Shown in pieces: positions 21,681-64,000 of a DNA stretch of 64,000 nt. Source of the DNA: Alphaproteobacteria bacterium (GTDB lineage Bacteria; Pseudomonadota; Alphaproteobacteria; MPNO01; UBA830). The notes beneath the pieces are model-generated. The model searched no databases. It was not told the DNA's origin and saw nothing but the letters and a program-made list of their open reading frames with translations. The stretch's first letter is position 1, and the number at the start of each line of letters is the position of its first letter. Position numbers and translations under genes: made by a program. The DNA is taken from assembly GCA_964291215.2 (NCBI GenBank), contig OZ219791.1, positions 2,816,001-2,880,000 on the forward strand, given 5' to 3'.

Positions 21681-21832
21681 TCCAATGCCGGACGGGGCGG
21701 AACACGGCGATGCATCGACCGACATACCTGCGCCGTCTAGGCCTGGTGCGTCGGCCTCACCGGAGGGAGAGCGATCCTCTCTCCGGGGCAGAGCCTTTCA
21801 ACGAACCATGATCGAGTCTTCGTTCATGAGGC

Positions 21833-23345
21833 GTAACTGCTCACCCCCTGGTTCCGGCTTGATGTCGGGGTAGAGCAACGAACGGGGTTCCGTGGAGATT
21901 TGACACTGCATGCCGATTCGCTTAGTGGTGGTCATCGAGAACGACGGGGACCGCCAGTGGGCTACTTTGGATCGAAGGCGACGAGCGGGCTGTGCCAGCT
22001 GCTTCCGGGGCTCCAGCCTCCGCATGATCTGTATGTGGAAACGCATTTCGGAGGCGGCGCGCTGATGAAGCGCAAGGCCGGGTGATGGCGACGGTCAACG
22101 CGGCGCGCGAGGAGTTCGAAGCGGCCAAGACCGCGGCGCTGCCGGCAAGGTGGCGGAAGAGGCCGTCATCCGCGTCCTTGTCATCCTGCTCGACATCATC
22201 ATCGTCGTCCTTCTGGAGAAGACCACGCACGAGCCGGAACTCCGGTCTGCCGCCGTCACAGACGGACAAGAGCGTGCCGGAAGCAACGGCCCGAAGCCGA
22301 ACCGGCAGATGGGCGACAACCTGCGCAAGATCATCGTCGAGGAGACGGTCGCGGCCTGCGACGCCTGCGGCGCTGACGGCCCCGTCGATCGGGAGCGCCG
22401 CACGACATCGTGTTCGAGGTCGTCGAGCGCCGCGCCGAGATCAAGGAATGCCCGAAGTGCAAGGCCCGGGGCCGGTTCCCCGACAACATCCCGTGCAGTA
22501 CGGCATCGGCATTCAGGCCCTCGTCATCAACCTGCTGGTCGCCCAGATGCTGTCCCTGCGCCGTGCCGTCGCGTTCGTGCAGGCGATCTCCGGCATCAAG
22601 CTCTCCGAGGCCTCGGCTATGCTTTCACGATGCGTCATGGGAGGAGGCCGCCGTGGCGCACCTCCTGCAACGCCCGATGTCGACGAGACCGGATTTCGGA
22701 TCAACAGCAAGTGGCTCCATGTCGTCGGGACCCTGACGTGCAAGTTCCCGCACCGCAAGCGCGGGCAAGAGATCGGCATCATCCCGTGCTACAAGGGCGT
22801 CCTGGACCTCGTACATGGGCCAGTGTAGCCACCAGCTGTGCGGCAGCCACCTGCTGCGCGAACTGACCTTTGTCGTCGAGGCTACCGCGCGACTGATGAA
22901 GAGCCTGCTCCGCGAGGTCTGCCACAAGGTCAACAAGATCGCATCCAAAACCCTGAACGACGACGTGCGCAAGCGCTACCGCACCATCAGGGCGCCAGGG
23001 AACTGCCCGACATCCCGCCGAAAGGAAAACGTGGACGCAAGTCCGACGCGCACAACCTGCACGAACGTCTCGTGAAACACGCAAACCTGCGCTTCACAGA
23101 CGACCCCAACGTCAGCTTCACCAACAATGCCGGAGAACAGAAGATCAGGATGGCAAAGGTCAAGGTGTCCGGGTGCTTCCGCTCCACGCAAAAGCATGGT
23201 GCCGGGGCTCGAGCTACCTCACCTCCATGGCCGCACTCGGCTACAACCCACTCGTCGCCACCCAGATCGCCCTCGACGGAAAAGCCGCAGACATCATCAA
23301 CGAGCACTATGGCCAATCAGAACCCAACTAGGGGTGAGTAGATAC
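21833..23345 (+). mobile_element. Decayed IS66-family element (copy A) with methyltransferase remnant and frameshifted transposase
   Basis: TIRs GTAACTGCTCACCCC / GGGGTGAGTAGATAC; perfect 8-bp TSD CATGAGGC (21825-21832, 23346-23353). Fragments: CPKC, VDETGFRI, HQLCGSHLLREL, FTNNAGEQKIRMAKVK-VSGCFRS. Confidence 0.92.
21957..22085 (+). pseudogene. Internally deleted Dam/D12-class DNA adenine methyltransferase inside IS66 copy A
   Basis: (M)GYFGSKATSGLCQ...PPHDLYVETHFGGGALMKRK parallels the YxGGK...YVEPFxGGG N-terminal motifs; a perfect TTGACA lies upstream at 21900-21905. Confidence 0.6.
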
Positions 23346-24061
23346 CATGAGGCCTTATATAGTAGCCCATGAGAATTGGCTTTCGACATCTGTCCACGAC
23401 GACGGTTGATTGGCTGAAGGTGGCGCCGGTTGCCGAGAGCGGCACGCCCTGGCGCAGGGATTGTGCGAACGCGAGGCGCAACGCGAAGGGCGAGCTGTGG
23501 CTTGCCGCGTGCGGCCCTGCCTGGTCTTGCCTCGGCGCTCGGCATCGTCCTTCCTGCACCAAGGCCTCGACATTGGCACCCTTGAGCGGGACTATCCCGA
23601 CAAGCCACTCGCATGTTCTCCGGAGGAGCTTGGCGAGGTCACCGTAGAGCCGGTCGGCGACGACGAGGACAAGCGCCTGGCGATGATGACGACCTGGCAT
23701 CCCGAGGCGCGCGCACCCGGATGAGCTACCGGATCACCTCGTCGTGCTACGGCCGCCTCGGCGGCCTGGTGTTCCGTGCGGCCAATTGGCATCAGAAGGC
23801 GCGCGACGACTTCTGGTCCCGGGGAGCGCGTGACGTTCACCTCGGCAAGGTCGTCAACAACGCCCGCTTGCTGATACTTCCGTCGGTGAATGTTCCGGAG
23901 CTGGCCTCCCATGTCCTGGCCTGCCGGCGGCTTGCTGCGGACTGAGAAGTGACGCCGGTTCCGGCCTACGCCTATGTGAGCCCCGAAGACACCGGCACGA
24001 GCTACAGGGCGGCAGGCCGGGAGCGTTGTGAGAAGATGACCTCGGGCCGACCTCCCGGGGC

Positions 24062-26394: not shown

Positions 26395-27546
26395 GGATTC
26401 TCGCCAGAATAGGTTGATCATTATTTCCGTGGCGTGAGGGTATGGTTCCACTCGCCGTGGAACGGGTCTCTGCGGATGGCGAGGCCGTCCATCTGATCGT
26501 CGGTGACCTTGACCCCGAGCGGATAGCTGTTCTCGTCGAGGTCCGAGCGTATGGTGAGGCCGGTGGTGGTCGCGGCGATCAGCTTGACGATCACCTGGTA
26601 GCTGACGAGGGGCCGGCCGCGCCAGTTCCGGGTGATATGGCAGAACATCCGGTGCTCGATCTTGTTCCACTTTCCGGGCGGGAAGTAGGCCACCGACACC
26701 TTCAACCCGAGTTCGTCGGCGAGGTGCTGCAGCTTCCACAGCCGGTTGCGGCTGCTGCCGTCGGCGGTGATCAGCAGGCGCCTCGCATCGGGATAGACCA
26801 GCTGGCCCATCTGCCGCCACCAGCGGCCTCGACCGCAAACGCCGCCGTGTCGTGTCCGACGCTGACCCGGCCGGCATTGGCGGTGAGATCGTAGAGCCCG
26901 CAGGGGATCCGAGCTCCGGATCGGGGAAGTCATGTACGTTGACGGCTTCAGGGTCGCCCTCGGGGCCCGGCCGCCATTGCGGTACTGGATTTCCTTCTTC
27001 TTGGTGTCACCACAGGCTGGCCCAGCCTCCGGAACGCGCGCACCCGGCGCGTCGGAACTGCGCATCCCGGGCTGGCGGCCTTCCAGCGTCTTGCGATTGG
27101 CCTGGAGGCTGTACCCCGGATCGTGGAGCAGCCGGTTCACCGTGCGCTCGCTGACGCCCTTGACCGCAAGACGGTCCGCCAGCGGCACTGTGACACCGCA
27201 GCGAACTCTCCGGATCGCCGCGCGTCATCGGTTCAAGCTCGCGCGCCGCCACCAACCCCGGATCCGCCACCCGCTTGCGCCCGCCGCCGGGGCGACGCAA
27301 ACGTCCTGAAGGAATCTCACTCGAAGACTCCGAATCAAGCTCCTCCGGCGCGAACGGTGCCCATCCCCGTCGCCTCGACCACTCGCCCGATGGCACGGGC
27401 CTCCGTCGCCGCCCACAGGCGCCGCGCACGTTCGTTCAGAACCGGACGCAACACTACAAACTTGGATCGCAGCGTATCGACCATCGCTTCCATGACATCA
27501 TTGATAGTAGATCCACGCCAAAAACAATCTATTTTGGCGAGGGACC
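26395..27546 (-). mobile_element. Decayed ISAzo13-family element
   Basis: Imperfect TIRs (CTCGCCAGAATAGGTTG / CAATCTATTTTGGCGAG). Transposase pseudogene 26421-27493 with LNERARRLWAA, RRPGGGRK, GYSLQANRKT, KWNKIEHRMF, NWRGRPL, FHGEWN. Confidence 0.85.
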
Positions 27547-29705: not shown

Positions 29706-31814
29706 TCACGGCCCCTGTTCCGGCGTCAGCCGGATGTTGCCGAACCGGTCGCGCACGGCCACGGCTCCGGCCGGCACCCAGATCGTTGTCGTGTCCCGTT
29801 CTATGATGGCCGGACCCTCGATCCCGGTGTCGGGCGCGAGGGTGGAGAAGTCGATGACGCCGGCGTCTGTCCAGCCCGCCCCCCGGACATGGACCCGGCG
29901 GGTGCCGCGGCGACTGCTGCCGGTGGCCGCGAGTGGTGCCAGTGCCGGCTGGTATGCGGGATGCGATGCGTCGACGCGGAAGCTGATCAGCTCAAGCGGT
30001 GTTCCGGGCCGCGCGACGCCGGCGCCGAAGCGCGCGCCGTATTCGGCCTCGAACAGCGCCTCGAGCGCGCCGGCGTCCGCTGGCGCCAGATCGGGGCGTG
30101 GCCAGTCAATGGTGATCTCGTTCATCTGGTTGCGGTAACGCATCTCGATGCGGAAGCGGAAGGTGCAACGTCCGGGGTCGAGCCCGGCGTCGATCATGTC
30201 CCGGTGCGTCGCCGCCTTCAGCTCACCGAAGCTGCGCGTCGCGACCTCGGCGGCCTCCGCGCCGAGCGCGATCGGCTCCGATCTCGCATGGCTGTAGGTG
30301 ATGTCGGCTATGGCGACTCCGAGCGCTGAAAATACGGGTCCGGCATGGGGCAGTACGACCTCGCGGATACCAAGTTGGCGGGCCAGTTCCGCGCAGTGTG
30401 CGCCGGTGGCGCCGCCATAGGCGTAGAGCGCGAAGGCTCCGGGATCGTGCCCGCTCTCGATCGAGACCTTGCGGATCAGATTGGCCATCATCGCGTTGAC
30501 GACCTCGATCGCGCCGGCGGCGGCGTCCAGCGCGGTCATGTCGAGCGGTGCGCCGACCTCTCCGAGCGCGTCCAGCGCGCGTTCGGGGTCAAGCCGGAAG
30601 CGCCCGCCGAAGAAACCGTCAGGGTCGATGATGCCGCAAGCGACCAACGCGTCGGTCACGGTCGCCCGGGTGCCGCCGCGGCCATAGGCCGCAGGGCCGG
30701 GATCGGCTGCCATGCTCTCTGGGCCGACATGGAGGCGGTAGCCGTCGGTGCGGATCACGCTGCCGCCGCCCGCGCCGATGGTGACAAGCCGGGCGGCCGG
30801 GAGCAGCACTGGCAGGCCTTGGTCGAGATAGGGCCTCGGGTCCTCCTCGAAGTCGCCGCCGTCAATCAGCCCGACGTCAAAGCTCGTGCCGCCCATGTCG
30901 GCGGTGATGATGTGGTCGTGGTCGAGTTCGCGGCCGAGATGGCGGGCAGCGATCAGCCCGCCGGCGGGACCGGAATTGATGATCGACACCGCGCGGCGTC
31001 CGGCATCACCGACGCGCGCGGCAGTGCCGCTCGACGTAACGACCTGAAGCGGAGTCCGAAGGCCGGCGGCGCCGAGGTGGGTGTCCAGGCTCGCAAGATA
31101 GCGTTTGGTGACGGGGCCGACATGGGCGTTGACGACAGTTGTCACCGCACGCTCGAACTCGCCCATTTTCGGTGCGATCTCGGATGACAGGCTGAGCGGC
31201 AGCGCAGGCGCCATTTCATGGGCGATTTCCCCGACCCGGCGTTCATGCGCGGGATTGCGGAACGACCAGAGAAGGCAAACCGCGAGGCTCTCGGCGCCGA
31301 CCTCCAGAAGTTCGGCGACCGCGGTGCGCAGATGGATTTCGTCGAGTGCCACCACGACCTCGCCGTCGGATCCGATCCGTTCTCGGACCCCGCGCACCAT
31401 ACGCCGCGGGACCAGAGGCGGCGGCGGCTCGGTATGGACGAAGTTCATGGCCAGCGCCGGGCTGAGGCCGCCGACGCGGCCGACCGGGCCCCGTCCGATC
31501 GCCAGCGTGTCCTCGAAACCGTGCGTGAACAGTGCGCCGACCCGGGCGCCCTTGCGTTCGATGAGGGCGTTGGTCGAGACCGTAGTTCCGTGGGCAAACG
31601 TGGCCGTGCGGGTGAGGATCTCGGGAACTGCGAGCCCGACTGTGGCTGAGGCGCGTTCGAGCACCTCGAGCACGCCGGCATCGGGCGCGTCCGGCTTCGA
31701 GAAGGCCTTTGCGGTGACGATTCCGCCCTGGCCGTCGATCAGGACCAGATCGGTGAAGGTGCCGCCGGCGTCTACGCCGATACGGCAATCGCGCACGGGC
31801 GGGGAGTCGTTCAT
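29706..31814 (-). CDS. Hydantoinase A/oxoprolinase-family ATP-binding subunit
   Basis: GVDAGGTFTD, HGTTVSTNALI, SGPAGG, DMGGTSFDV, GAGGGS, GPAIIE. Confidence 0.93.
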   Translation of the reverse strand: MNDSPPVRDCRIGVDAGGTFTDLVLIDGQGGIVTAKAFSKPDAPDAGVLEVLERASATVGLAVPEILTRTATFAHGTTVSTNALIERKGARVGALFTHGFEDTLAIGRGPVGRVGGLSPALAMNFVHTEPPPPLVPRRMVRGVRERIGSDGEVVVALDEIHLRTAVAELLEVGAESLAVCLLWSFRNPAHERRVGEIAHEMAPALPLSLSSEIAPKMGEFERAVTTVVNAHVGPVTKRYLASLDTHLGAAGLRTPLQVVTSSGTAARVGDAGRRAVSIINSGPAGGLIAARHLGRELDHDHIITADMGGTSFDVGLIDGGDFEEDPRPYLDQGLPVLLPAARLVTIGAGGGSVIRTDGYRLHVGPESMAADPGPAAYGRGGTRATVTDALVACGIIDPDGFFGGRFRLDPERALDALGEVGAPLDMTALDAAAGAIEVVNAMMANLIRKVSIESGHDPGAFALYAYGGATGAHCAELARQLGIREVVLPHAGPVFSALGVAIADITYSHARSEPIALGAEAAEVATRSFGELKAATHRDMIDAGLDPGRCTFRFRIEMRYRNQMNEITIDWPRPDLAPADAGALEALFEAEYGARFGAGVARPGTPLELISFRVDASHPAYQPALAPLAATGSSRRGTRRVHVRGAGWTDAGVIDFSTLAPDTGIEGPAIIERDTTTIWVPAGAVAVRDRFGNIRLTPEQGP

Positions 31815-46750: not shown

Positions 46751-46771
46751 TCGGCCTTATATGATCAGGTT

Positions 46772-46829: not shown

Positions 46830-46835
46830 CCTCGA

Positions 46836-48710: not shown

Positions 48711-48711
48711 G

Positions 48712-49151: not shown

Positions 49152-49308
49152 CAGGATCGACAGGAAAGCGCTCCTTGGCATGGTTTCGCCGCCACAGGTC
49201 GATTCGGCAGTCAGGGATGCACGGCACCGGCAGGTCAACATCGCGGGACCGGTACTTCCGTCCCCCCGCCGGTTGCCTTTTTCCGCGCCAGCGCTGATGC
49301 TTGCGGCC

Positions 49309-51057: not shown

Positions 51058-52123
51058 GTTCGTGATCGCGCTGCTCGCAGCCGGGCTGGCGGCCGGACAT
51101 GCGCATGCCCGGGAGGCCGTAACGGTGGTGACATGGGGCGGCGCGTACGAGGAGGCGCAGAGAGCCGCGATATTCGAACCGTTCACGGGCAAGACCGGAA
51201 TCGGAGTCGGCGTGCGCCGTCACGACGGCAGACCCGAGACCCTGCGCACGCGCTCGGAACCCGAAGCATGGGACGTTGTCGACCTCACCGAGGACCAGGC
51301 GATCGCGGCCTGCGAGTCCGGCCTTCTGCAGCGCCTGGACCACGCTGCCATTTTCAAGACGGTGCCGGCAGCTTCGCTCAAGGCGGACTTCGCGGCAGGC
51401 GCTTTCCGCGACTGTTCGATAGCCCAGAACGCGTTTGCATCGGTGATCGCCTACAACGACGACGCGTTTCCCGGCGTAAAGCCTCGTCGCATAGAGGATT
51501 TCTTCGATCTCACCTCCTTCCCCGGCAAACGGGCCATCGAGCGCAGTCCCGACGCGATCCTGGAATGGGCGCTGCTTGCCGAGGGCGTTCCGCCAAGTCA
51601 GGTCTACGATCTGCTGAGTACACCCCGCGGACTGCAGCTGGCTTTCCGGAAACTCGACACGATTCGCGCTTCCGTCATCTGGTGGACCGATGTCACGGCA
51701 CCGGCCGAACTGTTGCGGAGCGGCCGGGCGAGCATGGCGAGCGGCTACAACGGTCGTTTCTTCGCGGCCGCCCGGGACCAAGGCACCCCGATCATCATCG
51801 TCTGGGACGGTCAGGTCATTGGCTACGAGGTCTGGGCGATTTCTGCAGCATCGCAAAACACCAAGGCAGCGGAGAGGTTCATCCGCTTCGCCACCGCGCC
51901 AGAGCGGATGGCGCGCCTCGCCGAGAAGATCCCCTACGGTCCGACGCGGCGCTCGGCCATGGAACGGATAGGCCTCGATGCCGACAGGCGGATTCCGATG
52001 CGCCTCCACCTGCCCAACGCCCCCGGACACATGAAGCGGGCCCTGGTGCGCGACAGCGCTTGGTACGCCCATACGGCAACAATTCGGAACAAACGTTTCG
52101 CCAACTGGCTTGAAGGGAAATGA
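51044..52123 (+). CDS. ABC transporter substrate-binding protein (PotD/PotF-like)
   Basis: Signal peptide, TWGGAYEEAQ, FPGKRA, LEWALLAEGV, GYNGRFF, IPYGPTR; overlaps the ClC stop; no permease or ATPase nearby. Confidence 0.88.
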   Translation: MRRSEFVIALLAAGLAAGHAHAREAVTVVTWGGAYEEAQRAAIFEPFTGKTGIGVGVRRHDGRPETLRTRSEPEAWDVVDLTEDQAIAACESGLLQRLDHAAIFKTVPAASLKADFAAGAFRDCSIAQNAFASVIAYNDDAFPGVKPRRIEDFFDLTSFPGKRAIERSPDAILEWALLAEGVPPSQVYDLLSTPRGLQLAFRKLDTIRASVIWWTDVTAPAELLRSGRASMASGYNGRFFAAARDQGTPIIIVWDGQVIGYEVWAISAASQNTKAAERFIRFATAPERMARLAEKIPYGPTRRSAMERIGLDADRRIPMRLHLPNAPGHMKRALVRDSAWYAHTATIRNKRFANWLEGK

Positions 52124-52126
52124 TCC

Positions 52127-53686
52127 TCAGTCCCCGCCAACCGCACCGCCGCCACCGATCCGCTCCTCGATCCAAGCCTTGGCGAGCGCACGATCAATCT
52201 TGCCGGCCCCGTTCAGCGGCATCTCGTCGACAACGAAGACTCGTCGCGGATGGGCATAGGCCGGGCCGTTGTCGAGCGCGAAGCGTTTCAGTTCCTCCTC
52301 GTCCGGTTCCGACCCCTCGCCCAGGACAACCAAGGCAGCCGGCGCCAGGCCCTTGACCACATGGGCTACCGGAGCCACCACAGCGTCGATCACGTCGGGA
52401 TGCTGGACCAACAGCAGCTCCACTTCCTTGGGGTTTATGTTCTCGCCACCGCAGGAGAACTGGTCGTCCGTTCGCCCCATGAAATAGAAGAAACCGTCTT
52501 CGTCGCGCCGGAAGATGTCGCCGGTGCGGAGATAGCCATCAACGAGCCATTCGGCATCGAGTTCCGGCCGGTTGTTGTAGCCTTCGAGCACCGCAGGCGA
52601 ACGCACCCATAGTTCCCCCTCACCGTCGGCTACATCACCATCTGCTGACACCAGCCGGACATCGACTTCGGGTGCTACAAGGCCGCAGCTGCCGCGCGGC
52701 ACCGGCCGCGAATCAACGGGTTCACGCAACGGCCCTCCGCCTTCGGTAAGGCCGTAGGCCTCGATCACCGGAGCGCCGAAGGCCTCTTCCACCGCGACTA
52801 TCAGGTCGGCTCCCACCACGGCCGAACCCATCTCCAGGCTGCAAAGCTTGGCAAACGAGAGCGTCCGCAGCAGGTCGCGTTCCGCCAATACCATGCGGTA
52901 CATCGCTGGAACGCCGCCAGCATGCGTACATTCGTATTCGCAAAGCGCCTGCAGGAACGATCTCGGCTCGAACCTCGGAAGGATGACGACGGATCCCCCG
53001 ACCCGGAGCTTTGGCTTGATCGAAACCCGCATCGCGTTCTTGTGAAAGAGCGGCCCGGCGATCAGCGCACGGTCATCCGGTGCCGCGGGCCAGTATTTCT
53101 GTGCATGGCGGATGCCCCAGAGCATGCCGTCATGGGTAAGCAGTACGCCCTTCGGCTTGCCGGTCGATCCCGACGTATAGGGCAGGAACGCCGTCTGGCG
53201 CGGAGCAATCGTAGGCGCCCTGACCGGCAGGACTACGGACGCGAGCATGGTCTCATAGTCTTCCCATCCCGCAATGCCGGGAGCCGTCGCGATCTTCGGT
53301 CCGAGACCAGTTTCTTCGACGATTTCCGCGATTCGAGGATGGCATCCAGGCGAGACGATCGCAGATCCGGCGCCAGAATCGGCAATGATGAACCGTATGG
53401 TATCGGCACCGAGGCGGTGGTTCAGCGGTATCGGCACGACACCGGCGCGCATCGCCCCGAAGAAGACCTCGATGAATTCGAACCGGTTCTCCATCGCGAG
53501 GAGCAGACGGTCGCCGGGTACGAGGCCCAGACCCTGCAATGCTGCTCCGACCCGTTCCATCCGTTCGTTGAGCAGGCCGTGGGAAAGCTCCGCCGGCTGG
53601 TCACGCGACAGATCAACGATGGCAAGGCGCTCCGAATGATCGTGGGCAGCCTGCCGATTGAAATAGCCTAGGTTCCTACCGTTCAT
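52127..53686 (-). CDS. Acyl-CoA synthetase (class I adenylate-forming enzyme)
   Basis: YTSGSTGKPKGV, EAYGLTEGG, RTGDIF, GENINPKEVE, GAGKIDR. Confidence 0.93.
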   Translation of the reverse strand: MNGRNLGYFNRQAAHDHSERLAIVDLSRDQPAELSHGLLNERMERVGAALQGLGLVPGDRLLLAMENRFEFIEVFFGAMRAGVVPIPLNHRLGADTIRFIIADSGAGSAIVSPGCHPRIAEIVEETGLGPKIATAPGIAGWEDYETMLASVVLPVRAPTIAPRQTAFLPYTSGSTGKPKGVLLTHDGMLWGIRHAQKYWPAAPDDRALIAGPLFHKNAMRVSIKPKLRVGGSVVILPRFEPRSFLQALCEYECTHAGGVPAMYRMVLAERDLLRTLSFAKLCSLEMGSAVVGADLIVAVEEAFGAPVIEAYGLTEGGGPLREPVDSRPVPRGSCGLVAPEVDVRLVSADGDVADGEGELWVRSPAVLEGYNNRPELDAEWLVDGYLRTGDIFRRDEDGFFYFMGRTDDQFSCGGENINPKEVELLLVQHPDVIDAVVAPVAHVVKGLAPAALVVLGEGSEPDEEELKRFALDNGPAYAHPRRVFVVDEMPLNGAGKIDRALAKAWIEERIGGGGAVGGD

Positions 53687-54299
53687 GGCCCTCGGGATTC
53701 CACATCGCCCATCAGGCAGCCGGGACTGTGCGATCGCAATCCACATTCGGTCCGCGAGCCGTCCGCAGCGTCCATTTTACCCCAACCGAATTCCAGCGGG
53801 CTGCACGTCACCATAGCCGGCGCGATGAATCGCGGTCCATGACGGTCGGATACCAGATTCGGGGCAACGCGAGCCCGGTCTCTCGGATCACTTCTGTAGC
53901 AGGCGGAACAGCGAGAAGAAACCTCTCCGGCCTATCGACTCCCGAATGGAAAAGAGCATCACATATCGAGCATCGCCAACCAACAGAACCGCCGCGCATG
54001 CGGTCACCACAAGGTCGGCGCAAGGCGTTCCGAAATGGTGCGAGGAATCATGTCGATACTTCGAATTCTGCCTGATCGCTCCCAAGCCAGCGATCCAGTT
54101 CGCTAGCGACGCCAACTTCCTCACTATTTCGCGACACACATTCCCGCACGATCGCCACTCGCCTCCCGGAACTTCCCTCTGATGCCGCTGTTCGCGCACG
54201 ACATTGGCATCAAATTTTGCCTGCCAGAAATCCCGGCGAGTCGCAGGCGTCGTGACGGACCGTGACGTACCGGCAATTCGGATGACAACGTCTACAGGT

Positions 54300-54416
54300 T
54301 TGCCTGATCCAGACGCGCATCAAGACCGTTCTGGCCCCCTCCCGAACAAAGGTCTCAGCATGCGGATAATCGACACGATCGAATATTTTCGAATCAACGC
54401 CTTGATTTATTTGCAT
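54300..54416 (-). pseudogene. Possible GHKL-type ATPase N-terminal remnant
   Basis: ETFVRE / QNGLDARLD across a frameshift resembles the ExxQNxxDA N-box. Confidence 0.3.
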
Positions 54417-54451
54417 TTACCCAACAACAAACCATATTCATATCTGACATT

Positions 54452-54691
54452 TTATATTGGATATATTGATTTTATAAGAAATTCTTCTTCAATCAGGTCA
54501 TCATCTCTACCAAACCGGTTCTTGGCGGCATCTAACTCCTTTTGGAGAGTCTTGAAAATTTTCCGGACATCATCATTGCCGTAAGCATAGGCACTACGGT
54601 TGGAAAGATTGCCTATCAGACGAATATTTTTGATCGTCCGGTTAACGCGCAATTAGGCGAGTTCCACGAATTTTGCTCGTTTGTCCCGCAT
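54452..54691 (-). pseudogene. Small AT-rich hypothetical protein with internal stop
   Basis: MRDKRAKFVELA*LRVNRTIKNIRLIGNLSNRSAYAYGNDDVRKIFKTLQKELDAAKNRF; in-frame TAA at codon 13; low-GC segment. Confidence 0.6.
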
Positions 54692-54816
54692 TACTCGTCC
54701 TCGAGAATCCAGCATAGATTTTACTGACATTCCGTGGATGTGTCTAACATTTCATAGATATTAAATTTTTCCCAACAATATTTCTCATATTCTTCTTCTG
54801 TGAGCTATGAGAGCTC

Positions 54817-55170
54817 TCAGATCGTCAGGACAATACCCCTCCGACAGCCTTCGTTCCTGACCTCATTCATGAAAGACATGTCGCTCCTGCCATCGCGCGA
54901 CTGCGCTACCGTGAAATCGCTCTCGTGGACGCGGTCGCCGAAGAGCAGGCAGGCGTCGTCGGGGTCGCACTGGTTGGAGGTCCAGACGAGACTATCAGCG
55001 CTGGCATTATCGCGGTGGATGGCCGCGGCCCACAACACGGTCTGACCGTACAGGACCGGACTCGACGAGATCAGGTCACTGCGCGAGATACCGCATTGGC
55101 TCAGTATAACACTGCGCAGTTCGACCAATTGCAGCTCACGGTTCGTCAGAAGCTCCGAATTTTTTGCGTA
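54817..55170 (-). pseudogene. RES-domain (NAD+ phosphorylase-like) protein, 5'-truncated
   Basis: RELQLVELR...LISSSPVLYGQTVLWAAAIH...DSLVWTSNQCD...LLFGDRV, typical of a RES C-terminus; cut by the IS end at 55171. Confidence 0.7.
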
Positions 55171-56427
55171 GGTACTGTAACTTGATGTCTGGAAATTTGT
55201 CTGAGGTTTGCGCTTTGAGGCGTTTCACTGGGGGGCTAGTGTCTTGTCATTCGTCAAATGTCGAATAAGGGCGTTTGAGTTTCACGCGGGCATCGTCGGT
55301 GGTGAACTGCCAATCCACCTTGGCCTGAATGCGGTCGCCTGCCAGGCGGCAACTTCCCGGCGTAGCACCTCGATGCAGTCGATGCGGCGGTTCAGGCGGA
55401 TCATGACGTTGAGTTCCACCACGTTCAGCCAACTGCCGTGCTTGGGGGTGTAGACGAACTCGAAGCGGTCCCACAAGGCCTCGTCCGGCGGGTAGGCCTC
55501 GTAGAGGGCGCCGGGGAGTGTTGAGATTGTCCATCACCAGGGTGATGGTGGTGGCGTCCTGGTAGCGCCCGGCGATGTCGGCCAGGAACTGCGCCCAGTC
55601 GATCTTGCGCTCGGTTACCTTGGTCATGCGCTTGCCGGCCAGGGGTTCCGTGAAGACGTTGCAGGTGCCGCAACGTCGATACTCGTAGTCGTTACGTCCG
55701 TCCCGGCGCCATGGCGATCGGTTGCCGTGTCTCGCCGGTCGGGGCGTTTCGTCCATGCAGACCACGGGGAAGGCGGCGGGACGGCGATAGACATCGAGCA
55801 CCTTCTCCATCGCCGCGGCGAAGTCGGCGTTCCCTTGAGGAGGAATTACCCACCCGCTGCCATGGCTTGAGGCAGTTTTTTTTAGAACACGCCGCACCGT
55901 CTCGTGTGACACGGTATCAATGTAACCAAGCTCGACAACGCGGTTGGCCAGCAGCCGCAACGACCATTGCGCGTAACCCTCAGGCGGTTCACCACAACTC
56001 AGGGCCACGCGCCTCGAAGGTGCCGTCGGCTTTTCGCATGTAGGTAGGACGGCGTCCTTGCCGGCCACCCAATGCCGCCTCCAACCCCTCGAAACGCTTT
56101 TTCACCCGGTCTACTTTGCGCATGCTGATGCGCAGAATCTCGGCAATGACCTTCCCGGTCATCTGGCATTCATTGAACGCGCCCTCGTCGCAGTTAAGCA
56201 GGGCGTTGATTACCTTTTGCGACAGGTGCGAGCCCTTGATCTCCGAAAGTTCTGCCCGTTCGTCCAGGGTCACCACGTAGCGTTTCATACTCCGACCTCC
56301 ATCCCGAATGGACGGACAGTCTAGCACCAAATGTACGACATATCATTGCTGACATAACACTAGCCCCCAGTGAAACGCCTCAAAGCGCAAACCTCAGACA
56401 AATTTCCAGACATCAAGTTACAGTACC
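55171..56427. repeat. About 68-bp inverted repeat (IS256-type left end) flanking an IS630
   Basis: 55171-55239 and 56360-56427 are reverse complements, differing by one G in a run; they share ..TGATGTCTGGAAATT with the IS256 right end at 56934-56959. Confidence 0.85.
55240..56359 (-). mobile_element. Decayed IS630-family element
   Basis: CTAG on both sides; MKRYVVTL, WSLRLLA, VSHETVRRVLKK, VVCMDE, DYEYRRCGT, LVMDNLNT, TPKHGSWLN, VDWQFTTDDARVKL. Confidence 0.88.
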
Positions 56428-56439: not shown

Positions 56440-56959
56440 CCTGCATGGTACGACCTTCATCGTCTCGGATGACCATGCTGGGCTGAAAGCAGCACGACGC
56501 GCGGTGCTGGGCGCGGCGACGTGGCAGCGCTGCCAGTTCCACCTGGCGCAAAACGCCGTGCAGCACGCACCGAACAATGACATCAGGAAACGTATTGGAA
56601 AACAGCTCGGAGCCATGCGTCCTCACTCCAAACCGCCGAGGCTGAACTGGGCGTCCTCGTGGCCAGCTATCGCGACAAGCATCCGGGCTTCCTGGCTGGA
56701 AAACAATGCGGGGCTCGCTGTCTTCACCTTGCCCGATGCTCACCGCAAGCGCATGCGAACCTCGAACGGCATCGAGCGACCGATCCAGCAAGAACTCAAG
56801 CGGCGCACCTCCAAAGTCAGGGTCTTTCCAAACCTCGCCTCGTTGGAGCGCCTCTCAACCGCGGTCCTCATCGACGAAAAATGGGAAACCGAAACCAAGA
56901 TCAAATGGGAACAGCTCGATCAGCTTCACGACAATTTCCAGACATCAGGTTGCGTAATC
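56440..56959 (+). mobile_element. IS256-family 3' remnant
   Basis: SDDHAGLKAAR, WQRCQFHLAQNA, RMRTSNGIER, ELKRRTSKVRVFPN; terminal TTTCCAGACATCAGGTTGCGTAATC. Confidence 0.85.
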
Positions 56960-57578: not shown

Positions 57579-60134
57579 TTATCCGAAATCGAAGTCCCCG
57601 GCATTCACCTCGGTCACGCCTTCAAGAACGATCAGGCTGCCGCCCACATCCGTCAGATCAATGACTGTTTCGCTTCCGTCTCTCGTGGTGATTCTGCTCT
57701 CGAGATCGCTGAAGTCATCTATGCTGGCGTAGCCGGAAATCTGGATGGTGTCTTCCCCGTGTCTGCCGAAATCCTGGATCGTGTGAACAGCGCCACTGGT
57801 GCCGCCAATTCTGTTGAGGAAGACGAATGTGTCGTCGCCGTGCTCGCCGTACATGGTGTCGTCACCGGCGCCGCCACGCAAGGTGTCATCGCCCCAGCCA
57901 CCGTTCAGGGTGTCATCGCCGTCGCCGCCATGCAAGGTGTTATCGCCCCAGGAATTTTCCAAGGTGTCGTCGCCGTCGCCACCGTACATGGTGTCGTCGC
58001 CGTGGCCGCCGTACATGGCGTCGTCACCGGCGCCGCCATGCAAGGTGTCATCGCCCCAGCCACCGTGCAGGGTGTCGTCGCCGTCATCGCCATACAGCGT
58101 ATCGCCGCCCCTGTCGCTCCAACCGGCGAACAGCATGTCGTTGCCATGACCGCCATGTAGTGTGTCGTAGCCCTTGCCACCGAACAGGGCGTCGTCGCCA
58201 GCGCTGCCGTGTAAGGTGTCGTCGCCGTCGTGGCCGTACAGGATATCGTCGCCGTGGCTGCCATCCAGATGGTCGTCGCCGGTGCCGCCATGCAGGATTT
58301 CGCCGGCACTGGCCTTTATTTGGAAATTGCCGGTTGTTTCATCGAGCCCCAGGGAGATGCCCGACACATTCAACAACCTGATCATGACATCATCGTCGAC
58401 GGAGTCGTAGCGAATGACAGTATCGGCACCGTCTCGACTGATATCAAGCTTGATACCGGATCCTTGGATAAGAATCGTGTCGTCCGCCGTGAAATCGGCG
58501 ATGGTGTCGCTTCCATCTGCCGCAGGGTACCGGACGAGGTAGCCATCAGGGCCAAGGTACGACGGTCCTCCCGTCCAGAACACGAAGGTGTCAGCGCCCG
58601 AGCCGCCGTACAGGACATCGTCGCCGCCATCGCCCTCCAGAGTATCGTCGCCCGAACCGCCGTACATGGTATCGTCGTCGTCGCCGCCCGTCAGCGTGTC
58701 GTCGCCGTCATGGCCGTACAGGATATCGTCGCCGTCGTGGCCGTGCAGGATATCGTCGCCCGTGCCGCCGTTCAGGATTTCGCCGACACCGGCCTTTATT
58801 TGCAAATTGCCGGTTGTTTGATTGCCCTCCAAGGAGAGGCCCGACACATTCAACAACCTGATCGTGGCACCACCGTCGACGGAGTCGTAGCGGATGACGG
58901 TATCGGCACCGTCTCGACTGATGTCAAGCGTGTGTTTGATATGGATTCCTTGGATAAGAATCGTGTCGTCCGCCGTGAAATCGGCAATGGTGTCTCTTCC
59001 ATCTGCCGGATTGTACCGGCGTCCCCCTCCCGTCCAGAACACGAAGGTGTCAGCGCCCGAGCCGCCGTACAGGACATCGTCGCCGCGACCGCCCTTCAGA
59101 GTATCGTCGCCCGAACCGCCGTACATGGTGTCGTCGCCTTCGTCGCCGTGGAGTATGTCGTCGCCCTTGCCGCCCCCCAGCGTATCGTCGCCAGCCCCGC
59201 CGCGCAGGGTGTCGGCACCCCTGGCGCCGCGCAGCGTGTCGTCGCCCGCGCCGCCGTCCAGCGTGTCGTTGCCCTTGCCGCCCCCCAGCGTATCGTCGCC
59301 AGCCCCGCCGGTCAGCGTGTCGGCGCCCAGGCCGCCATAGAGGAGGTCGTCGCCGGCCCCGCCGGTCAGCGTGTCGGCGCCCCCGTAGCCACGCAGGGTG
59401 TCGGCGCCATCACCACCGGTGAGCGTGTCCGCGTCCTTGCTACCCTTCAGCACCTCGCCGCCAGAAGGCCCGCCGCTCGAGGCGTCGCCGGACGTGCCCT
59501 CCGGCGGCGCGCCCTGTGCAAGAGCGTCCTCGCCGCCGCCCTCCGGCGGGGCTGCCTCGACGGGAAGGAACCGGAAGTCGTCCGCGCCAAGGGAGGCCGC
59601 CGTCACGCCCTCCAGCTTGATCGTGTCGCCGTCGCCGTAGCGGATGACGGTATAGAAGCCCTTCTGCTCGATCACCAGATCCCCGAAACCGCCGGACACC
59701 CCGGCAATCTCGATGATGTCGCCAGCCTCGAAATCGCCGATGTAGTCGGCCCCGTCGCCGACCGCGAACGCAAAGACGTCATGGCCACTGCCGCCATAGA
59801 GCGAGTCCGTGCCCCGGCCGCCGGTCAGCCTGTCGGCGCCCCGGCCGCCTTCCAGACGGTCGTTGCCCGCACCGCCATCGACCGTGTCGTCACCGTCGCC
59901 GCCATAGAGCGTGTCGTTGCCCGTGCCGCCGTCCAGCGTGTCATCGTCCGAGCTGCCGGGGTTCATGAGGAGAAAGTCCGCGTCGGCTCCCGCGCTTGCG
60001 GTTCCGCCCGTCAGCGTGTCGTCGCCGTCGCCGCCCGTCAGGATGTCGTCGCCGAGGCCGCCCTTCAGGATGTCATTGCCGAGGCCACCCGTCAGGGTGT
60101 CGTCGCCAGCACCGCCGGTCCGCTCGATAGCCAT
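57579..60134 (-). CDS. RTX (hemolysin-type Ca2+-binding repeat) secreted protein
   Basis: Many GGxGxDxLx nonapeptides interspersed with DTIADF..DTI modules; AGGAGG RBS; no signal peptide; C-terminal ..DFDFG typical of T1SS substrates. Confidence 0.92.
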   Translation of the reverse strand: MAIERTGGAGDDTLTGGLGNDILKGGLGDDILTGGDGDDTLTGGTASAGADADFLLMNPGSSDDDTLDGGTGNDTLYGGDGDDTVDGGAGNDRLEGGRGADRLTGGRGTDSLYGGSGHDVFAFAVGDGADYIGDFEAGDIIEIAGVSGGFGDLVIEQKGFYTVIRYGDGDTIKLEGVTAASLGADDFRFLPVEAAPPEGGGEDALAQGAPPEGTSGDASSGGPSGGEVLKGSKDADTLTGGDGADTLRGYGGADTLTGGAGDDLLYGGLGADTLTGGAGDDTLGGGKGNDTLDGGAGDDTLRGARGADTLRGGAGDDTLGGGKGDDILHGDEGDDTMYGGSGDDTLKGGRGDDVLYGGSGADTFVFWTGGGRRYNPADGRDTIADFTADDTILIQGIHIKHTLDISRDGADTVIRYDSVDGGATIRLLNVSGLSLEGNQTTGNLQIKAGVGEILNGGTGDDILHGHDGDDILYGHDGDDTLTGGDDDDTMYGGSGDDTLEGDGGDDVLYGGSGADTFVFWTGGPSYLGPDGYLVRYPAADGSDTIADFTADDTILIQGSGIKLDISRDGADTVIRYDSVDDDVMIRLLNVSGISLGLDETTGNFQIKASAGEILHGGTGDDHLDGSHGDDILYGHDGDDTLHGSAGDDALFGGKGYDTLHGGHGNDMLFAGWSDRGGDTLYGDDGDDTLHGGWGDDTLHGGAGDDAMYGGHGDDTMYGGDGDDTLENSWGDNTLHGGDGDDTLNGGWGDDTLRGGAGDDTMYGEHGDDTFVFLNRIGGTSGAVHTIQDFGRHGEDTIQISGYASIDDFSDLESRITTRDGSETVIDLTDVGGSLIVLEGVTEVNAGDFDFG
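58214..59166 (-). repeat. Tandem internal duplication (about 480-bp unit) within the RTX gene
   Basis: The block DVLYGGSGADTFVFWTGG...DTIADFTADDTILIQG...DISRDGADTVIRYDSVD...IRLLNVSG...TTGN.QIKA..GEIL occurs twice, near-identical at DNA level. Confidence 0.8.
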
Positions 60135-60173
60135 GATAAAATCCTCCTGATTCTGTTACGGACGCAAAGTCTA

Positions 60174-60197: not shown

Positions 60198-60341
60198 GCC
60201 GTCAAGCAAGTCCAGAAGTAACTGCTCACCCCCTGGTTCCGGCTTGATGTCGGGGTAGAGTAATGAACGGGTTTTCGTGGAGATTTGACACTGCAAGCCG
60301 ATTCGTTTAGTGGTGGTAATCGAGAACGACGGGGACCGCCA

Positions 60342-60536
60342 GGGGGCTACTTTGGATCGAAGGCGACGAGCGGGCTGTGCCAGCTGCTTCCGGGGCTCCA
60401 GCCCCCGCATGATCTGTATGTGGAAACGCATCTCGGAGGCGGCGTGCTGATGAAGCGCAAGGCGGAGTACCGGAAGATGCCGCCGGGCGAGCGCCAAGCG
60501 ATGCTCGCGACGATCATGACCGTCGAGGCCGGGTGA
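60342..60536 (+). pseudogene. Internally deleted Dam/D12-class DNA adenine methyltransferase inside IS66 copy B
   Basis: GYFGSKATSGLCQ...PPHDLYVETHLGGGVLMKRK joined to AEYRKMPPGERQAMLATIMTVEAG*; TGATG overlap with the transposase start. Confidence 0.62.
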
Positions 60537-61806
60537 TGGCGACGGTCAACGCGGCGCGCGAGGAGTTCGAAGCGGCCAAGACCGCGGCGCTGCCGGCAAG
60601 GTGCCGAAAGAGGCCGTGATCCGCGTCTTCGTCATCCTGCTCGACATCCTCATCGTCGTCCTTCTGGAGAAGACCACGCACGAGCCGGAACTCCGGTCTG
60701 CCGTCGTCACAGACGGACAAGGACGAGAGCGCGAAGCATGCCGGGAGCAACGGCAAGGGCCCGAAGCCGAACCGGCAGATGGGCGACAACCTGCGCAAGA
60801 CCATCGTCGAGGAAACGGTCGCGGCCTGCGACGCCTGCGGCGCCGACATCGACGGCCCCGTCGATCAGGAGCGCCGCGTCCTCTATGACATCGTGTTCGA
60901 GGTTGTCGAGCGCCGCGCCGAGATCAAGGAATGCCCGAAGTGCAAGGCCCGGACCAAGGGCCGGTTCCCCGACAACATCCCGTGCAGTACGGCATCGACA
61001 TCCAAGCCCTCGTCATCAACCTGCTGGTCGCCCAGATGCTGTCCCTGCGCCGTCGCGTTCGTGCAGGCGATCTCCGGCATCAAGCTCTCCGAGGCCTCGG
61101 CTATGCTTTCACGATGCGTCATGGGAGGAGGCCGCCGTGGCGCACCTCCTGCAACGCCCGATGTCGATGATTTCGGATCAACAGCAAGTGGTTTCATGTC
61201 GTGGGACCCTGACGTGCAAGTTCCCGCACCGCAAGCGCGGGCAAGAGATCGGCCCGTGCTACAAGGACGTCTTGGGCCTCGTACATGGGCCAGTGTAGCC
61301 ACCAGCTGTGTGGCAGCCACCTGCTGCGCGAACTGACCTTTGTCGTCGAGGCTGCTGCGCGACTGATGAAGAGCCTGCTCCGCGAGGTCTGCCACAAGGT
61401 CAACAAGAGCGCATCCAAAACCCTGAACGAGGCCGTGCCGTGCGCAAGCGCTACCGCACCATCAGGGCGCCAGGGAACTGCCCGACATCCCGCCGAAAGG
61501 AAAACGTGGACGCAAGTCCGACGCGCACAACCTGCACGAACGTCTCGTGAAACACGAAAACCTGCGCTTCACAGACGACCCCGACGTCAGCTTCACCAAC
61601 AATGCCGGAGAACAGAAGATCAGGATGGCAAAGGTCAAGGTGTCCGGATGCTTCCGCTCCACGCAAAAGCATGGTGCCGGGGCTCAAGCTACCTCACCTC
61701 CATGGCCGCACTCGGCTACAACCCACTCGTCGCCACCCAGATCGCCCTCGACGGAAAAGCCGCAGACATCATCAACGAGCACTACGACCAATCAGAACCC
61801 AACTAG

Positions 61807-63014
61807 TAGTCTGGCATTATTGGATTGACGGATATAGAGACTTCAGTTTCGTCCGGGCATCCTTCGTCGTGAAACGCCAGTCGACAGTGACATCGGCCGC
61901 ATTGCGGCGCTCGACCCACGCCACGGTCTCCCGCAGCATGGTGTCGCGGTCGGGAATGCGTCGCCGAAGGCATTGCCGCGACAGCGCGCCGATCTCGGCC
62001 ATGTTGAGCCAGCTTCGGCGTATAGCGAAACTCGAACCGCTTTCGTACCCGCCTCCTCGGGCTCGAAGGCTTCATACAGTGACTGTGCGTGTTCAGATTG
62101 TCCAGCACGATCTTCCTGTCGGGGAAATGGTCGTCGGCAAGCTCCCGGATGAAGTGCGCCCAGTCCCGCGGCGGTCGGTGACTTTCACCGTGCGCCAGTT
62201 TTCGTTGGGCGCAAAGGCCATGAAGAGGTTGGCCGTGCCGTTGCGCTCATATTCATAGTCGACCACCTCCGGCTGACCGGAGGACGGGGGGGGGGGGGGG
62301 GGGTCCTTCGTCTGCTGCCGGCTGGTCTCAGCACCTCGTCCCTGGCAAAGTCCCGCTGACAAATGTCAAGCACGTCCGCCGCCACGAACTGTGCGCTCCG
62401 GTGCGGTGGAATGCACCAGTTCAGCCACGGCTTGATCTTTTTTTTTAGCGTCTTCCTGACCGTCTCTTCCGAAATGCGCTCGACGATCTCCACCAGACGG
62501 CCGGCGAGCAGCTTCAGCGTCCACAGCCCTCGGGCGGGGACGAGACCAGCTTCGCCTCCATCGCCCCCGTTTTGGCCGGCGGTTCACCTGCTCCTTGCGG
62601 CTGAGGGCGGCGTCCAGCCCCTCCAGGACGCAGCGCTTGCGCAAGCGCTCGACCGTCGCCGTGCCGATGCCCAGCCCTTGCGCAATGTCGGCATCGACAA
62701 GCGCCCCCTCAGCATCAGGATTTGTGTCCGGCGCCAGGCAGCCCCGGTGCCGTCGACAATCGCCTTCAGATCCCGGCGCTCCTGCGCTGAAAGGGTCACC
62801 CGGTAGAGCTTCCTGCCCCGAGAGTTGGCCATATGCGCTGCTCCTGTCATTGCGCCGAAGACCTGCGGGCATGCCCGTTGTCCGGACCTGCGCATGGGGC
62901 TGCCTGCCTGTTCGGCATCTTGCCCGTGTGGATATCGGCACTGTCCAGATTCCAACGAACGCCGACACGAAAATACTACCCACAAAAAACCATCAATACA
63001 ATGCCGGTGGACTA
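61807..63014 (-). mobile_element. Decayed IS630-family element inserted at a CTAG near the IS66 right end
   Basis: CTAG duplicated (61803-61806, 63015-63018); ends TAGTC.TGGCATT / AATGCCGGTGGACTA; KLYRVTLSAQER, TVERLRKRCV, ISEETVRKTLKK, DYEYERNGTANLFM, LDNLNTH, VDWRFTTKDARTKLKSLYP. Confidence 0.88.
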
Positions 63015-63073
63015 CTAGGGGTGAGTAGATACGTCCAGAAAATAAAATTTGCGCTCATGGTGCCTGTTCGGCC

Positions 63074-64000
63074 GCAGGGGATGGGGCTCCATGGCAAGGC
63101 ATGATATGCATCCCGCGCCGAAAGGCTATTCCATGCCGGCAGCCGGGGCAAGCGCCCCGGCGGCCACAACACGGTGATCCCATGCCAGGTTTGTTGGAAG
63201 GATTGATTCCGCTTGTTCAGGATGATTCGCATTTTCGCAGGCTTTTTGTGAAGCGGCGCAGTATCCGTTGTCGTGGAGGCAGCGGATTTTTTTGAGACGA
63301 CTCCGGAGGGTTTTGCGCTCCGGGATGTGGTTGTGCGCCTTGCGCGGCCTAGTGCCGCTGGAACCGTGTGGTTGACCGTCATCACTATCCTGGTTTCAAG
63401 CAGTTTGCCGGTCGAGGTCTGCGTGTTCACTTGGCGCGGGCGGTGGATTGGTGCTGCGGGCTGGCAGACGGGCGCCCTCAGCTGCGCACCGCGGGACCGT
63501 TGGATTGGCTGGCGCCGCGAGGAACAGTTCAGGCGGTTGCCGGGAACAACACGAGGTTTGTTGTTCCTGGTGGTCGCCGGGTGTTTCCGGGCCTCGTTTG
63601 CGTTGTCGCGGATGGTGCGGCGGCGACCGGGAGGCTGCCGTTGCTTGTTGCGGAGAAGTTTGTCTCGCCGACGAAGTTCAGCGGCACCATGTACAAGGCG
63701 GCGAACCGGGAGGGCGTTGGCAGGGGCCATGCGCGCGCCATACCGACCGGCACGGGAAGGCGAAGGATCCTTACGTGTTTCCACTGCGTCGTGACGCGGG
63801 ATCGTTCGCCGCTTCCTGCGGCGTGGGAGTTGCGGGCGCCGCTGGTCGGCGCAGGAGTTGCGCTCGATTTATCAGCGGCGCTTTCCGGCGCGCGCAGGGG
63901 CACCGCATCGCCTCGGTACTGTGCGTGATTTTGCTGGCTTGCGAACCGGCGCGGTTGCGGCAGCGCACTACGACGCAGAAGGAGCTGGAGCAGCATGGAA
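63074..64000 (+). mobile_element. Decayed DUF4338(DruA-like)-transposase element, probably ISAs1 family; runs off the window
   Basis: LRDVVVRL, DRHHYPGF, APRDRWIGW, NNTRFVV, GTMYKAAN, then a G.RHRL.TV...LAG fragment like the H-repeat/ISAs1 N-terminus; left boundary approximate. Confidence 0.6.

Follow-up and report, generated by a model that had tools for sequence, protein, structure and literature searches.

In filamentous fungi, repeat-induced point mutation (RIP) is triggered by repetition itself: mobile elements are destroyed through new C-to-T changes, from which short repeats are exempt. Bacterial insertion sequences (ISs), to our knowledge, are usually intact and near-identical or else lost whole, and the IS gene conversion in Wolbachia that Cordaux treated in 2009 is said, going by its title, to maintain copies rather than shrink them. 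Other relevant systems, as outlined in the available parts of the accounts cited, involve very short patches or biased losses. Deletion-biased nonallelic gene conversion in eukaryotes copies deletions between paralogs in excess of insertions, with a bias of ~3.4-fold (PMC3280953). Short-patch mismatch repair by nucleotide excision repair (NER) is described in Drosophila and Schizosaccharomyces pombe (PMC4154643) and short-patch conversion in Sulfolobus (PMC3367456), while Helicobacter pylori, a species without mismatch repair, acquires from transforming DNA microimports with means of 28–51 base pairs (bp) that depend on UvrC although its catalytic sites are dispensable (PMC9426483). The pseudogenes of a Burkholderia symbiont record alternative end joining, with microhomology in 171 of 396 cases, power-law sizes, and an excess of lengths divisible by three (Danneels et al. 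2018, PMC6054270). Here, IS66 elements and other mobile DNA in a 64,000-nucleotide (nt) stretch of an alphaproteobacterial genome (positions 2,816,001 to 2,880,000 of contig OZ219791.1; "the window" hereafter means this whole stretch) illustrate another mode of decay, in which repeats are eroded by deletions of 5–7 nt. With a probability that we would put at about 70%, these deletions arise rarely anywhere and then spread one way among repeats by deletion-biased very-short-patch gene conversion, a reading drawn from comparison of assembled sequences.

The genome that contains the window (G000) comprises 6.15 Mb in two contigs with 64% G+C, and ~30% of it is covered by at least three other copies of itself. 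Repeat discovery used 52 seeds of about nine copies and above, of which 30 families were analyzed together with one group II intron. The closest relative compared, the sister species G001, is syntenic with G000 and ~92–94% identical to it; 1.34 of its ~5.0 Mb was used, of which ~920 kb was aligned with G000 as single-copy DNA. Identity to G000 is ~78–79% for G002 and G004 and ~71–74% for G003.

The defining feature of the erosion is size: the deletions measure 5–7 nt or sums of these. The IS66 family represented in the window by the copies designated A and B has 114 full-length copies in G000, none of them intact. Compared with a profile of 118 intact homologous proteins, which served as the reference for direction, these copies show net losses of 5 nt (115), 6 nt (1061), and 7 nt (833), with the sums appearing at 12 nt (331) and 14 nt (164); altogether, 2009 losses of 5–7 nt stand against 38 of 1–4 nt and 16 gains. 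The mean copy carries ~24 deletions of 5–7 nt and 26 substitutions, corresponding to 13.6 such deletions per kb and 92 per 100 substitutions. Twenty-nine further families mostly carry 4–16 per kb per copy, the low values belonging to three families of miniature inverted-repeat transposable elements (MITEs; 0–2.9), to a family of 425 nt (3.0), and to two families that are divergent and of low copy number (0.4–1.0), and the median loss of length in most IS families is 4–21%. In the 49 copies of the group II intron, 1671 deletions of 5–7 nt compare with 30 of 1–4 nt, and its non-coding RNA domains are included in the loss. Above the main size class, 7 of 32 alleles of 8–9 nt and none of four 10-nt alleles are present in at least half of the copies.

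Age also matters. A young IS66 family of 12 copies (C1:476943–478868 and 11 other sites), showing 0–8 substitutions and 99.4–100% identity, has no gaps of 5–7 nt, and its transposase frame is open in 10 of the 12. Its older relatives do share deletions of this size, and the young family is without a few 5–6-nt segments that those relatives keep, as if it descended from a lightly eroded, in-frame copy. Because the young family is free of deletions that its older relatives carry, erosion requires time to build up and does not single out transposase genes in themselves.

The two copies in the window are arranged as follows.

21833–23345, plus strand: IS66 copy A, full length, of the type with a single open reading frame (ORF); target duplication CATGAGGC; 28 deletions and 25 substitutions relative to the family reference.
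60218–63032 (60218–61806 plus 63019–63032), plus strand: IS66 copy B; target duplication GTCCAGAA; 27 deletions and 26 substitutions; right end split by an IS630 element.

A preliminary description of the window had reported that these copies differ by few substitutions and many short deletions lost in either direction, and the alignment agrees, with 49 substitutions over 1485 aligned bases and 11 internal indels distributed as losses on both sides. The indels that it singled out are present as well: a 66-nt loss (AGGC, a homology of 4 nt) and two 6-nt losses in A, and the losses of GCCGT and CATCAT in B. The 8-bp target duplications at A and B are intact, again as described, and most copy A deletions are common to tens of other IS66 copies. 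That such differences might be consensus or polishing errors, an alternative raised at the same time, is contradicted by contigs from three public runs, in which short and long alleles both stand at high depth; as both alleles occur there, indels of the A/B type are physical. The contigs of one run (X1) show no difference from unique window DNA over 6540 bases and copy A is 100% identical to run contigs across most bins, the run contigs breaking inside repeats and leaving some bins uncovered. Another run (X3) has a contig in which the IS66 right end (23345) is followed, after 6 bases, by a left end (21833) at approximately single-copy depth; this would represent a tandem or a circle junction.

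What distinguishes repeats from the rest of the genome is that deletions become common in them, not that they are made more often. Allele frequencies were compiled for seven repeat families, with substitutions folded according to the majority reference. Alleles of 5–7 nt number 345 there, of which 224 (65%) occur in 10% or more of copies and 111 in half or more. The same 10% threshold is reached by 454 of 2901 substitution alleles (16%) and by 10 of 85 deletions of 1–4 nt, or at most 31 of 106 when minority short insertions are counted. When only those distant from common sites are counted, there are 11 isolated singleton deletions of 5–7 nt for 1652 singleton substitutions. As this is no higher than the single-copy rate, even with the filter hiding part of the elements, new deletions do not arise faster in repeats.

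That single-copy rate comes from 75 kb of non-coding DNA, where 5–7-nt gaps number 81 in G000 and 20 in G001; the G000 figure amounts to ~1.1 per kb, or to 1.6 per 100 substitutions when half of the 10,202 are assigned to its lineage, and the IS66 family is ~13-fold denser per kb. In 71 kb of single-copy frameshifted genes, there are 14 deletions of 5–7 nt and 50 of 1–4 nt. Among repeat pairs restricted to 1–8% divergence and sorted into eight bins from 2 to >100 copies, indels of 5–7 nt per 100 substitutions run 3.5, 5.8, 4.2, 8.1, 8.0, 18.0, 21.1, and 28.5, while those of 1–4 nt stay flat at 2.5–6.5; the physical distance between copies has no effect (rho −0.07 to 0.09). Host genes are touched as well. 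Over 803 kb of coding DNA, six-nt gaps number 50 in G000 and one in G001, with two of them in the window, as compared with 17 and 11 gaps of three nt, and five of the six two-residue gaps that could be tested with an outgroup are losses in G000. Two-residue gaps in orthologues likewise exceed one-residue gaps in G004 (34 versus 22) and G002 (10 versus 5); the corresponding counts are 2 versus 5 in G003 and 28 versus 70 in 101 unrelated control pairs. The excess of two-residue over one-residue gaps in the proteins of G000, G002, and G004 offers a cheap marker for screening genomes.

The way in which these deletions are shared among copies is not that of a tree. Deletion pairs more than 10 nt apart break the four-gamete rule in 44–68% of cases, and the closest IS66 pair among the 114 is separated by 13 substitutions and four deletions; one identical eroded IS630 pair occupies two sites. 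Substitutions, analyzed with gap-adjacent bases masked, break the rule in 12–18% of pairs at ≤4 nt, 50% at 5–6 nt, and ~75% at ≥13 nt. The patch fitted to 1145 substitution pairs is 14.7 nt (12–19) in a linear model and 8.5 nt (6–11) in an exponential one, the intron having been excluded since its subfamilies keep linkage flat; a loop with 3–4 nt of flank on each side comes to 11–15 nt. Linkage between deletions and substitutions is equally short, with r2 of 0.54, 0.33, 0.30, and 0.19 at distances of 1–4 nt and ~0.13 thereafter (14–21 pairs per distance). In one instance, a deletion and a private base 3 nt away occur together in 16 of 16 carriers and in none of 30 non-carriers, with the carriers as diverse as the family; in a second, the private base is found in six of six carriers and none of seven non-carriers. 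Reduced diversity in carriers is confined to the 4 nt nearest the site, where non-carriers are more diverse (52 versus 37 per kb), a pattern expected from short co-copying, from blocking of the event by a neighboring mismatch, or from the two combined.

Deletion density also varies along the elements, from 0.7–4.3 per kb in the first 50 nt to 10–21 past 150 nt, so that the sparing of element ends noted in the preliminary description holds except at the 5′ end of the intron, where the first 150 nt carry 19.6 per kb. At that end, homology extends into the usual IS host site, a flank common to 35 of 49 copies. MITE copies are the more diverged, at 23–62 substitutions per kb. A requirement for flanking homology would explain the spared ends and the MITEs better than selection for mobility. 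On the idea that the deletions are target-site footprints of a transposase, an exact-end script read duplications of mostly 8–10 bp; four small families had 6–7 bp, and the majority of families were unreadable by it.

The ends of common deletions share a weak motif, read inward from either end as non-C and then a pyrimidine, which is present at both ends in 53–72% versus 23–28%. It cross-validates between families (mean percentiles 0.65 and 0.68), is lacking in rare alleles (0.52–0.55), predicts deletions in G002 (0.75 and 0.70), and gives an expectation–maximization log-likelihood of 245 versus ~100 in three nulls over 301 events. Microhomology of at least 2 nt accompanies 44% of 372 common repeat deletions and 45% of 158 single-copy deletions, where chance gives 21–22%. 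Candidate explanations of other kinds were rejected. A strong recognition site, of restriction type or other, is not suggested by weak k-mer enrichment and low motif information; hairpin pairing within the deleted piece is not above the expectation from composition; and tandem duplication in place of deletion is countered by the protein profile, with perfect tandem units in 11 of the 372 common events.

The same size peak, motif, and patchwork recur in the independent assembly of G002, a congener, in which gaps of 5, 6, and 7 nt number 569, 726, and 108, the peak having moved to 5–6 nt. In a family of five copies there, 16 informative deletions fall on six splits where a tree permits two, and linkage is short-range. 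G004 has few repeats and little of the 5–7-nt pattern, and in G030, an IS-rich genome of another family, IS66 frames are open. Such a patchy occurrence (G000, G002, and G004, with G001 and G003 free of it) may reflect a mobile factor, or else conditions particular to some lineages, for instance small populations, high ploidy, or frequent recombination. Eight matches to the Vsr family and two to the NucS family were recorded in G002 and none in G000.

Conversion is proposed on the combination of an observed size lock, direction of loss, dependence on copy number, normal supply, excess of common alleles, non-tree sharing, short linkage, and weak motif. As we picture it, RecA-type pairing of a shorter with a longer copy would leave 5–7 bases looped out on the longer strand; a nuclease would excise a short patch containing the loop, and fill-in off the shorter strand would fix the loss. 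Mismatches would be patched in either direction and loops only toward loss. More partners and more flanking homology would mean faster erosion, with short MITEs and element ends being spared, and the in-frame 6-nt losses of host genes may reflect the same bias working between alleles.

In G000, recA, uvrA, uvrB, uvrC, mutS, and mutL are present with open frames; RuvC, RecJ, and ExoVII are present too, and the three uvr genes also occur in relatives without the excess. MutS and MutL keep what we take to be their mismatch-binding, Walker A, and endonuclease motifs, so that loss of mismatch repair was rejected, as was loss of RecA, RuvC, RecJ, ExoVII, or UvrABC. The excision patch of UvrABC in bacteria is 12–13 nt, and MutS handles loops up to ~4 nt. 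A patch of that UvrABC length would equal a loop of 5–7 nt with ~3 nt on each side and be close to the 11–15 nt given above, and loops of ≤4 nt would pass to MutS, whose limit matches the lower bound of the deletion sizes. We name UvrABC as a tentative candidate, at well below even odds, because it appears as ordinary as MutS and MutL and because G001, where there is no excess, has all of these proteins; otherwise some loop nuclease would be involved. Searches of G000 for NucS, Vsr, VRR-NUC, S1/P1, and topoisomerase IB found none of them. More speculatively still, the agent may be a dedicated and repeatedly acquired loop-clipping nuclease with a ruler of 5–7 bases (5–6 in G002), acting as a one-way deletion ratchet at any repeat pairing. 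Were this so, bacteria would have a guide-free equivalent of the RIP of fungi, one that works without recognizing the invader and whose spill-over into host genes would show as two-residue losses. An evolved defence and a by-product of repair are both compatible with the data.

A number of observations weigh against spread by conversion. The process has been read from one assembly per species, with no event seen directly, and the direction of loss could be referred to proteins or to an intact copy in the IS66 families alone, restoration of the longest ORF being uninformative for the others in high-GC DNA. Linear and exponential patch models fit equally well, the intron family shows no decay of linkage with distance (r2 ~0.46 throughout), and a near-fixed flanking difference exists in only 32 of 209 testable deletions, several of these being shifted alignments. 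Flanking linkage could in part reflect a nearby mismatch that blocks the event rather than a base copied with it. The end motif is absent from single-copy non-coding deletions (0.46) and weak in coding ones (0.59). G001 has UvrABC, MutS, and MutL in common with G000 and shows no excess, and NER alone therefore does not explain erosion in only some lineages. Moreover, the Drosophila account, in the part available, has NER-dependent short-patch repair acting in the same way on mismatches and on short indels and reports no bias toward loss (PMC4154643).

Among other explanations, recurrent cutting at fixed hot spots would have a dimeric or guided nuclease make staggered cuts 5–7 nt apart that are trimmed and rejoined independently in many copies. 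The symmetric motif at both deletion ends does resemble a dimeric cut, the greater diversity of non-carriers beside the site is what escape mutants would produce, and microhomology is at twice chance. The motif is nevertheless too weak to define 56 sites in 1.77 kb, the supply of singletons in repeats is not raised, alleles that combine a deletion with a private base are scattered through the family, and substitutions are shuffled in short patches too; given in addition that Ku, an ATP-dependent ligase, Piwi, and NucS were not found in G000 and that none of 112 spacers matches an IS, we regard such cutting as unlikely. The preliminary description had favored a relative of this model, in which repeats are repeatedly cut and healed by microhomology-mediated end joining. 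Its claim that erosion targets repeats survives in the dependence on copy number, although the non-coding intron is eroded equally and the young IS66 family is untouched. Microhomology, however, is not the rule: junctions with 0–1 nt make up 56% of the 372 common deletions and seven of the 11 A/B indels (the other four having 3–5 nt), the share in repeats equals that in single-copy DNA, and the supply of new deletions is normal. The agents to which that model pointed did not appear: Ku was found in none of five genomes, an ATP-dependent ligase in none of six, and a Piwi-domain protein in none of five. Two CRISPR (clustered regularly interspaced short palindromic repeats) arrays stand beside two cas1 genes in G000 (C1:574173–581202 and C2:2068487–2069557, with 97 and 17 repeats of 36 nt), and their 112 spacers, searched against the IS families of G000, include no match, the best to an IS reference being 15 nt. 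A loss of mismatch repair, for which it had proposed a search, conflicts with the open frames of MutS and MutL, and the host genes thought to be fully spared carry the six-nt gaps reported above.

Deletions might instead be shared by descent, a few eroded masters having been amplified in trans. Intact target duplications in 81 of 114 IS66 copies scored (8–9 bp), the identical eroded IS630 pair at two sites, and a weak correlation between deletion and substitution distances (rho 0.28–0.38) all agree with this, and the IS630 pair leaves room for the earlier suggestion that eroded elements were still being copied. For the IS66 family of A and B, that suggestion fails, there being no near-identical pair in 114 copies; with the four-gamete violations in 44–68% of deletion pairs >10 nt apart, an unexplained size lock, and 56 shared sites that at the single-copy ratio would need thousands of shared substitutions where 639 substitution alleles exist, descent is very unlikely. 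Unbiased short-patch conversion combined with host selection for shorter or dead elements would draw on conversion that is evident and on the benefit that inactive transposases may bring to the host. We judge it a shade less probable again, inasmuch as the commonest class, 6 nt, preserves frame, frameshifting deletions of 1–2 nt are rare, and ~28 deletions per copy, with non-coding intron domains eroded too, go long past inactivation. Ordinary neutral decay with a bacterial deletion bias, through alternative end joining and its excess of multiples of three, is a further candidate, and an extreme neutral deletion bias had been an alternative in the preliminary description. The microhomology share of 44–45% resembles the 171 of 396 in the available account of the symbiont (PMC6054270), and the background excess of 5–10-nt losses in G000 may well supply new alleles. 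As a full explanation it is refuted and scarcely credible: sizes in that account follow a power law and here 5 and 7 nt far exceed 1–4 nt in repeats, frameshifted single-copy genes show the reverse (14 versus 50), single-copy DNA is ~13-fold sparser, and neither the dependence on copy number nor the frequency skew is predicted. An artefact of assembly or polishing is just as hard to credit. Mis-mapped reads can yield patchwork haplotypes and the run contigs have holes in some bins; still, both alleles are in the contigs of three runs, 1652 singleton substitutions survive, the young IS66 family is near-identical without 5–7-nt gaps, the independent G002 assembly repeats the sizes, motif, and patchwork, and the two-residue excess lies in single-copy proteins.

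The remaining mobile elements and host genes of the window are listed below.

61802–63018, minus strand: IS630-family element nested in copy B; 54 full genome copies; 18 deletions and 22 substitutions; DDE_3 and HTH matches weak and below cut-off.
44930–46757 (44930–45163 plus 46600–46757), minus strand: IS66 copy C, 3′ end only; halves separated by the group II intron.
45164–46600, plus strand: group II intron (RF02005); 1437 nt remaining of ~1866; 49 full copies.
46755–48312, plus strand: IS110-family element; 57 full copies, with a median of 21% of length lost across the family; 28 deletions here.
55236–56363, minus strand: second IS630-family element; 36 full copies; 13 deletions (all of 5–7 nt, all shared) and 18 substitutions.
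26401–27541, minus strand: ISAzo13-family element; 18 full copies; 13 deletions of 5–7 nt and 30 substitutions.
56440–56959, plus strand: IS256-family element, 3′ part; 69 full copies; 9.8 deletions of 5–7 nt per kb per copy.
5903–6094, plus strand: MITE copy of 192 nt; 105 full copies; 0.7 deletions of 5–7 nt per kb in the family at 62 substitutions per kb.
38976–39168, minus strand: second MITE copy; a single 1-nt deletion.
19062–20558, plus strand: single-copy host gene; 6 nt missing near 19069 relative to G001.
29706–31814, minus strand: single-copy host gene; in-frame 6 nt missing near 29923 relative to G001.
48712–49151, plus strand: single-copy enoyl-CoA hydratase pseudogene, used as a control; one 7-nt deletion near 48849 and 45 substitutions in 404 aligned bases.

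All mobile elements of the window are absent at the orthologous sites of G001, and all were therefore inserted after the two species separated. The preliminary description had recognized A, B, and C as IS66, a family that Pfam likewise supports; B is an IS66 element into whose right end an IS630 has inserted, and C is a 3′ remnant that houses the intron. Of its other family labels, both IS630, ISAzo13, IS256, IS110, and the group II intron are supported by Pfam or Rfam matches, and IS4 and ISAs1 were not confirmed. It had also correctly set the MITE apart, the two copies showing 16 substitutions over 196 aligned bases and, as internal indels, just two of 1 nt. A second control pseudogene that it had proposed, at 54452–54691, gave no G001 alignment and no Pfam match. 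The intron prefers one target, with the same 5′ flank in 35 of the 49 full copies, and lies here within IS66. A contig of run X3 (~98.7% identical) passes from 44929 through ~1 kb of other sequence into an inverted 48879–55160, the IS66–intron–IS110 cluster being missing. A perfect 64-bp inverted repeat (55171–55234 and 56364–56427) that matches the start of the IS256 family brackets the second IS630 element. Pfam matches to DruA (PF14236), one of which passes the cut-off, occur in two eroded repeat families at 23586–23942 and 63252–63791 and possibly represent a transposase-associated use of the domain. At 57579–60134, an intact ORF of 851 amino acids made of 27-nt repeats belongs to a multi-copy host family.

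If deletions do spread one way, a consequence would be the slow destruction of any highly repeated DNA. Most of the G000 families examined are shredded to a degree that rises with copy number, which amounts to a negative feedback on mobile DNA and to a means of reducing genomes that requires neither selection nor large deletions. It is also a directional force that, in three lineages within a single genus, appears to fix losses of two residues from host proteins. Two subjects would become testable, namely the limits on IS expansion in IS-rich bacteria and the resolution of heteroduplex loops too large for MutS, and a nuclease or pathway that always removes loops of 5–7 nt would be a useful tool.

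How the G000 erosion relates to known systems can be stated feature by feature. It does not belong with end joining, with targeting by CRISPR or Argonaute, or with RIP. It resembles RIP in that damage depends on copy number and differs in that existing deletions are apparently copied; C-to-T singleton contexts, at 0.66–1.49-fold, give no context-specific signature, and the supply of new mutations is not raised. The symbiont pseudogenes, as the available part of their account presents them, have a similar share of microhomology and also archive degraded ISs, and they differ in the power-law sizes of their single-copy DNA (PMC6054270). The conversion proposed here among IS copies has a parallel in Wolbachia, to judge by the title of that work. 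H. pylori microimports are likewise very short homologous transfers in a bacterium, linked there to a NER protein; the part available of their account describes no deletion bias (PMC9426483). In the short-patch NER systems, markers are repaired independently unless they fall in one excision tract, whose length is taken from co-repair distance, much as in G000; those systems, as the available parts of their accounts describe, are seen when MutS-type repair is absent and show no bias toward loss, and the MutS and MutL of G000 look intact (PMC4154643, PMC3367456). The erosion behaves like deletion-biased nonallelic conversion by very short patches, with which it shares the excess of deletions, the independence from physical distance, and a predicted cooperative shrinkage of neutral paralogs (PMC3280953). 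As in that process, identical indels are shared between paralogs in non-tree fashion in G000 and G002, and losses exceed gains, the latter in the IS66 families only. What sets G000 apart is that it is bacterial, with gains nearly absent, a patch shorter than ~15 nt, an end motif, and a lock on 5–7 nt of which the available part of that study gives no sign (PMC3280953). No bacterial account of a size-locked, copy-number-dependent spread of deletions was found in the open-access literature. The phenomenon is real and unusual, and it is probably a form of biased gene conversion, one whose outcome is like that of RIP without the chemistry of RIP.

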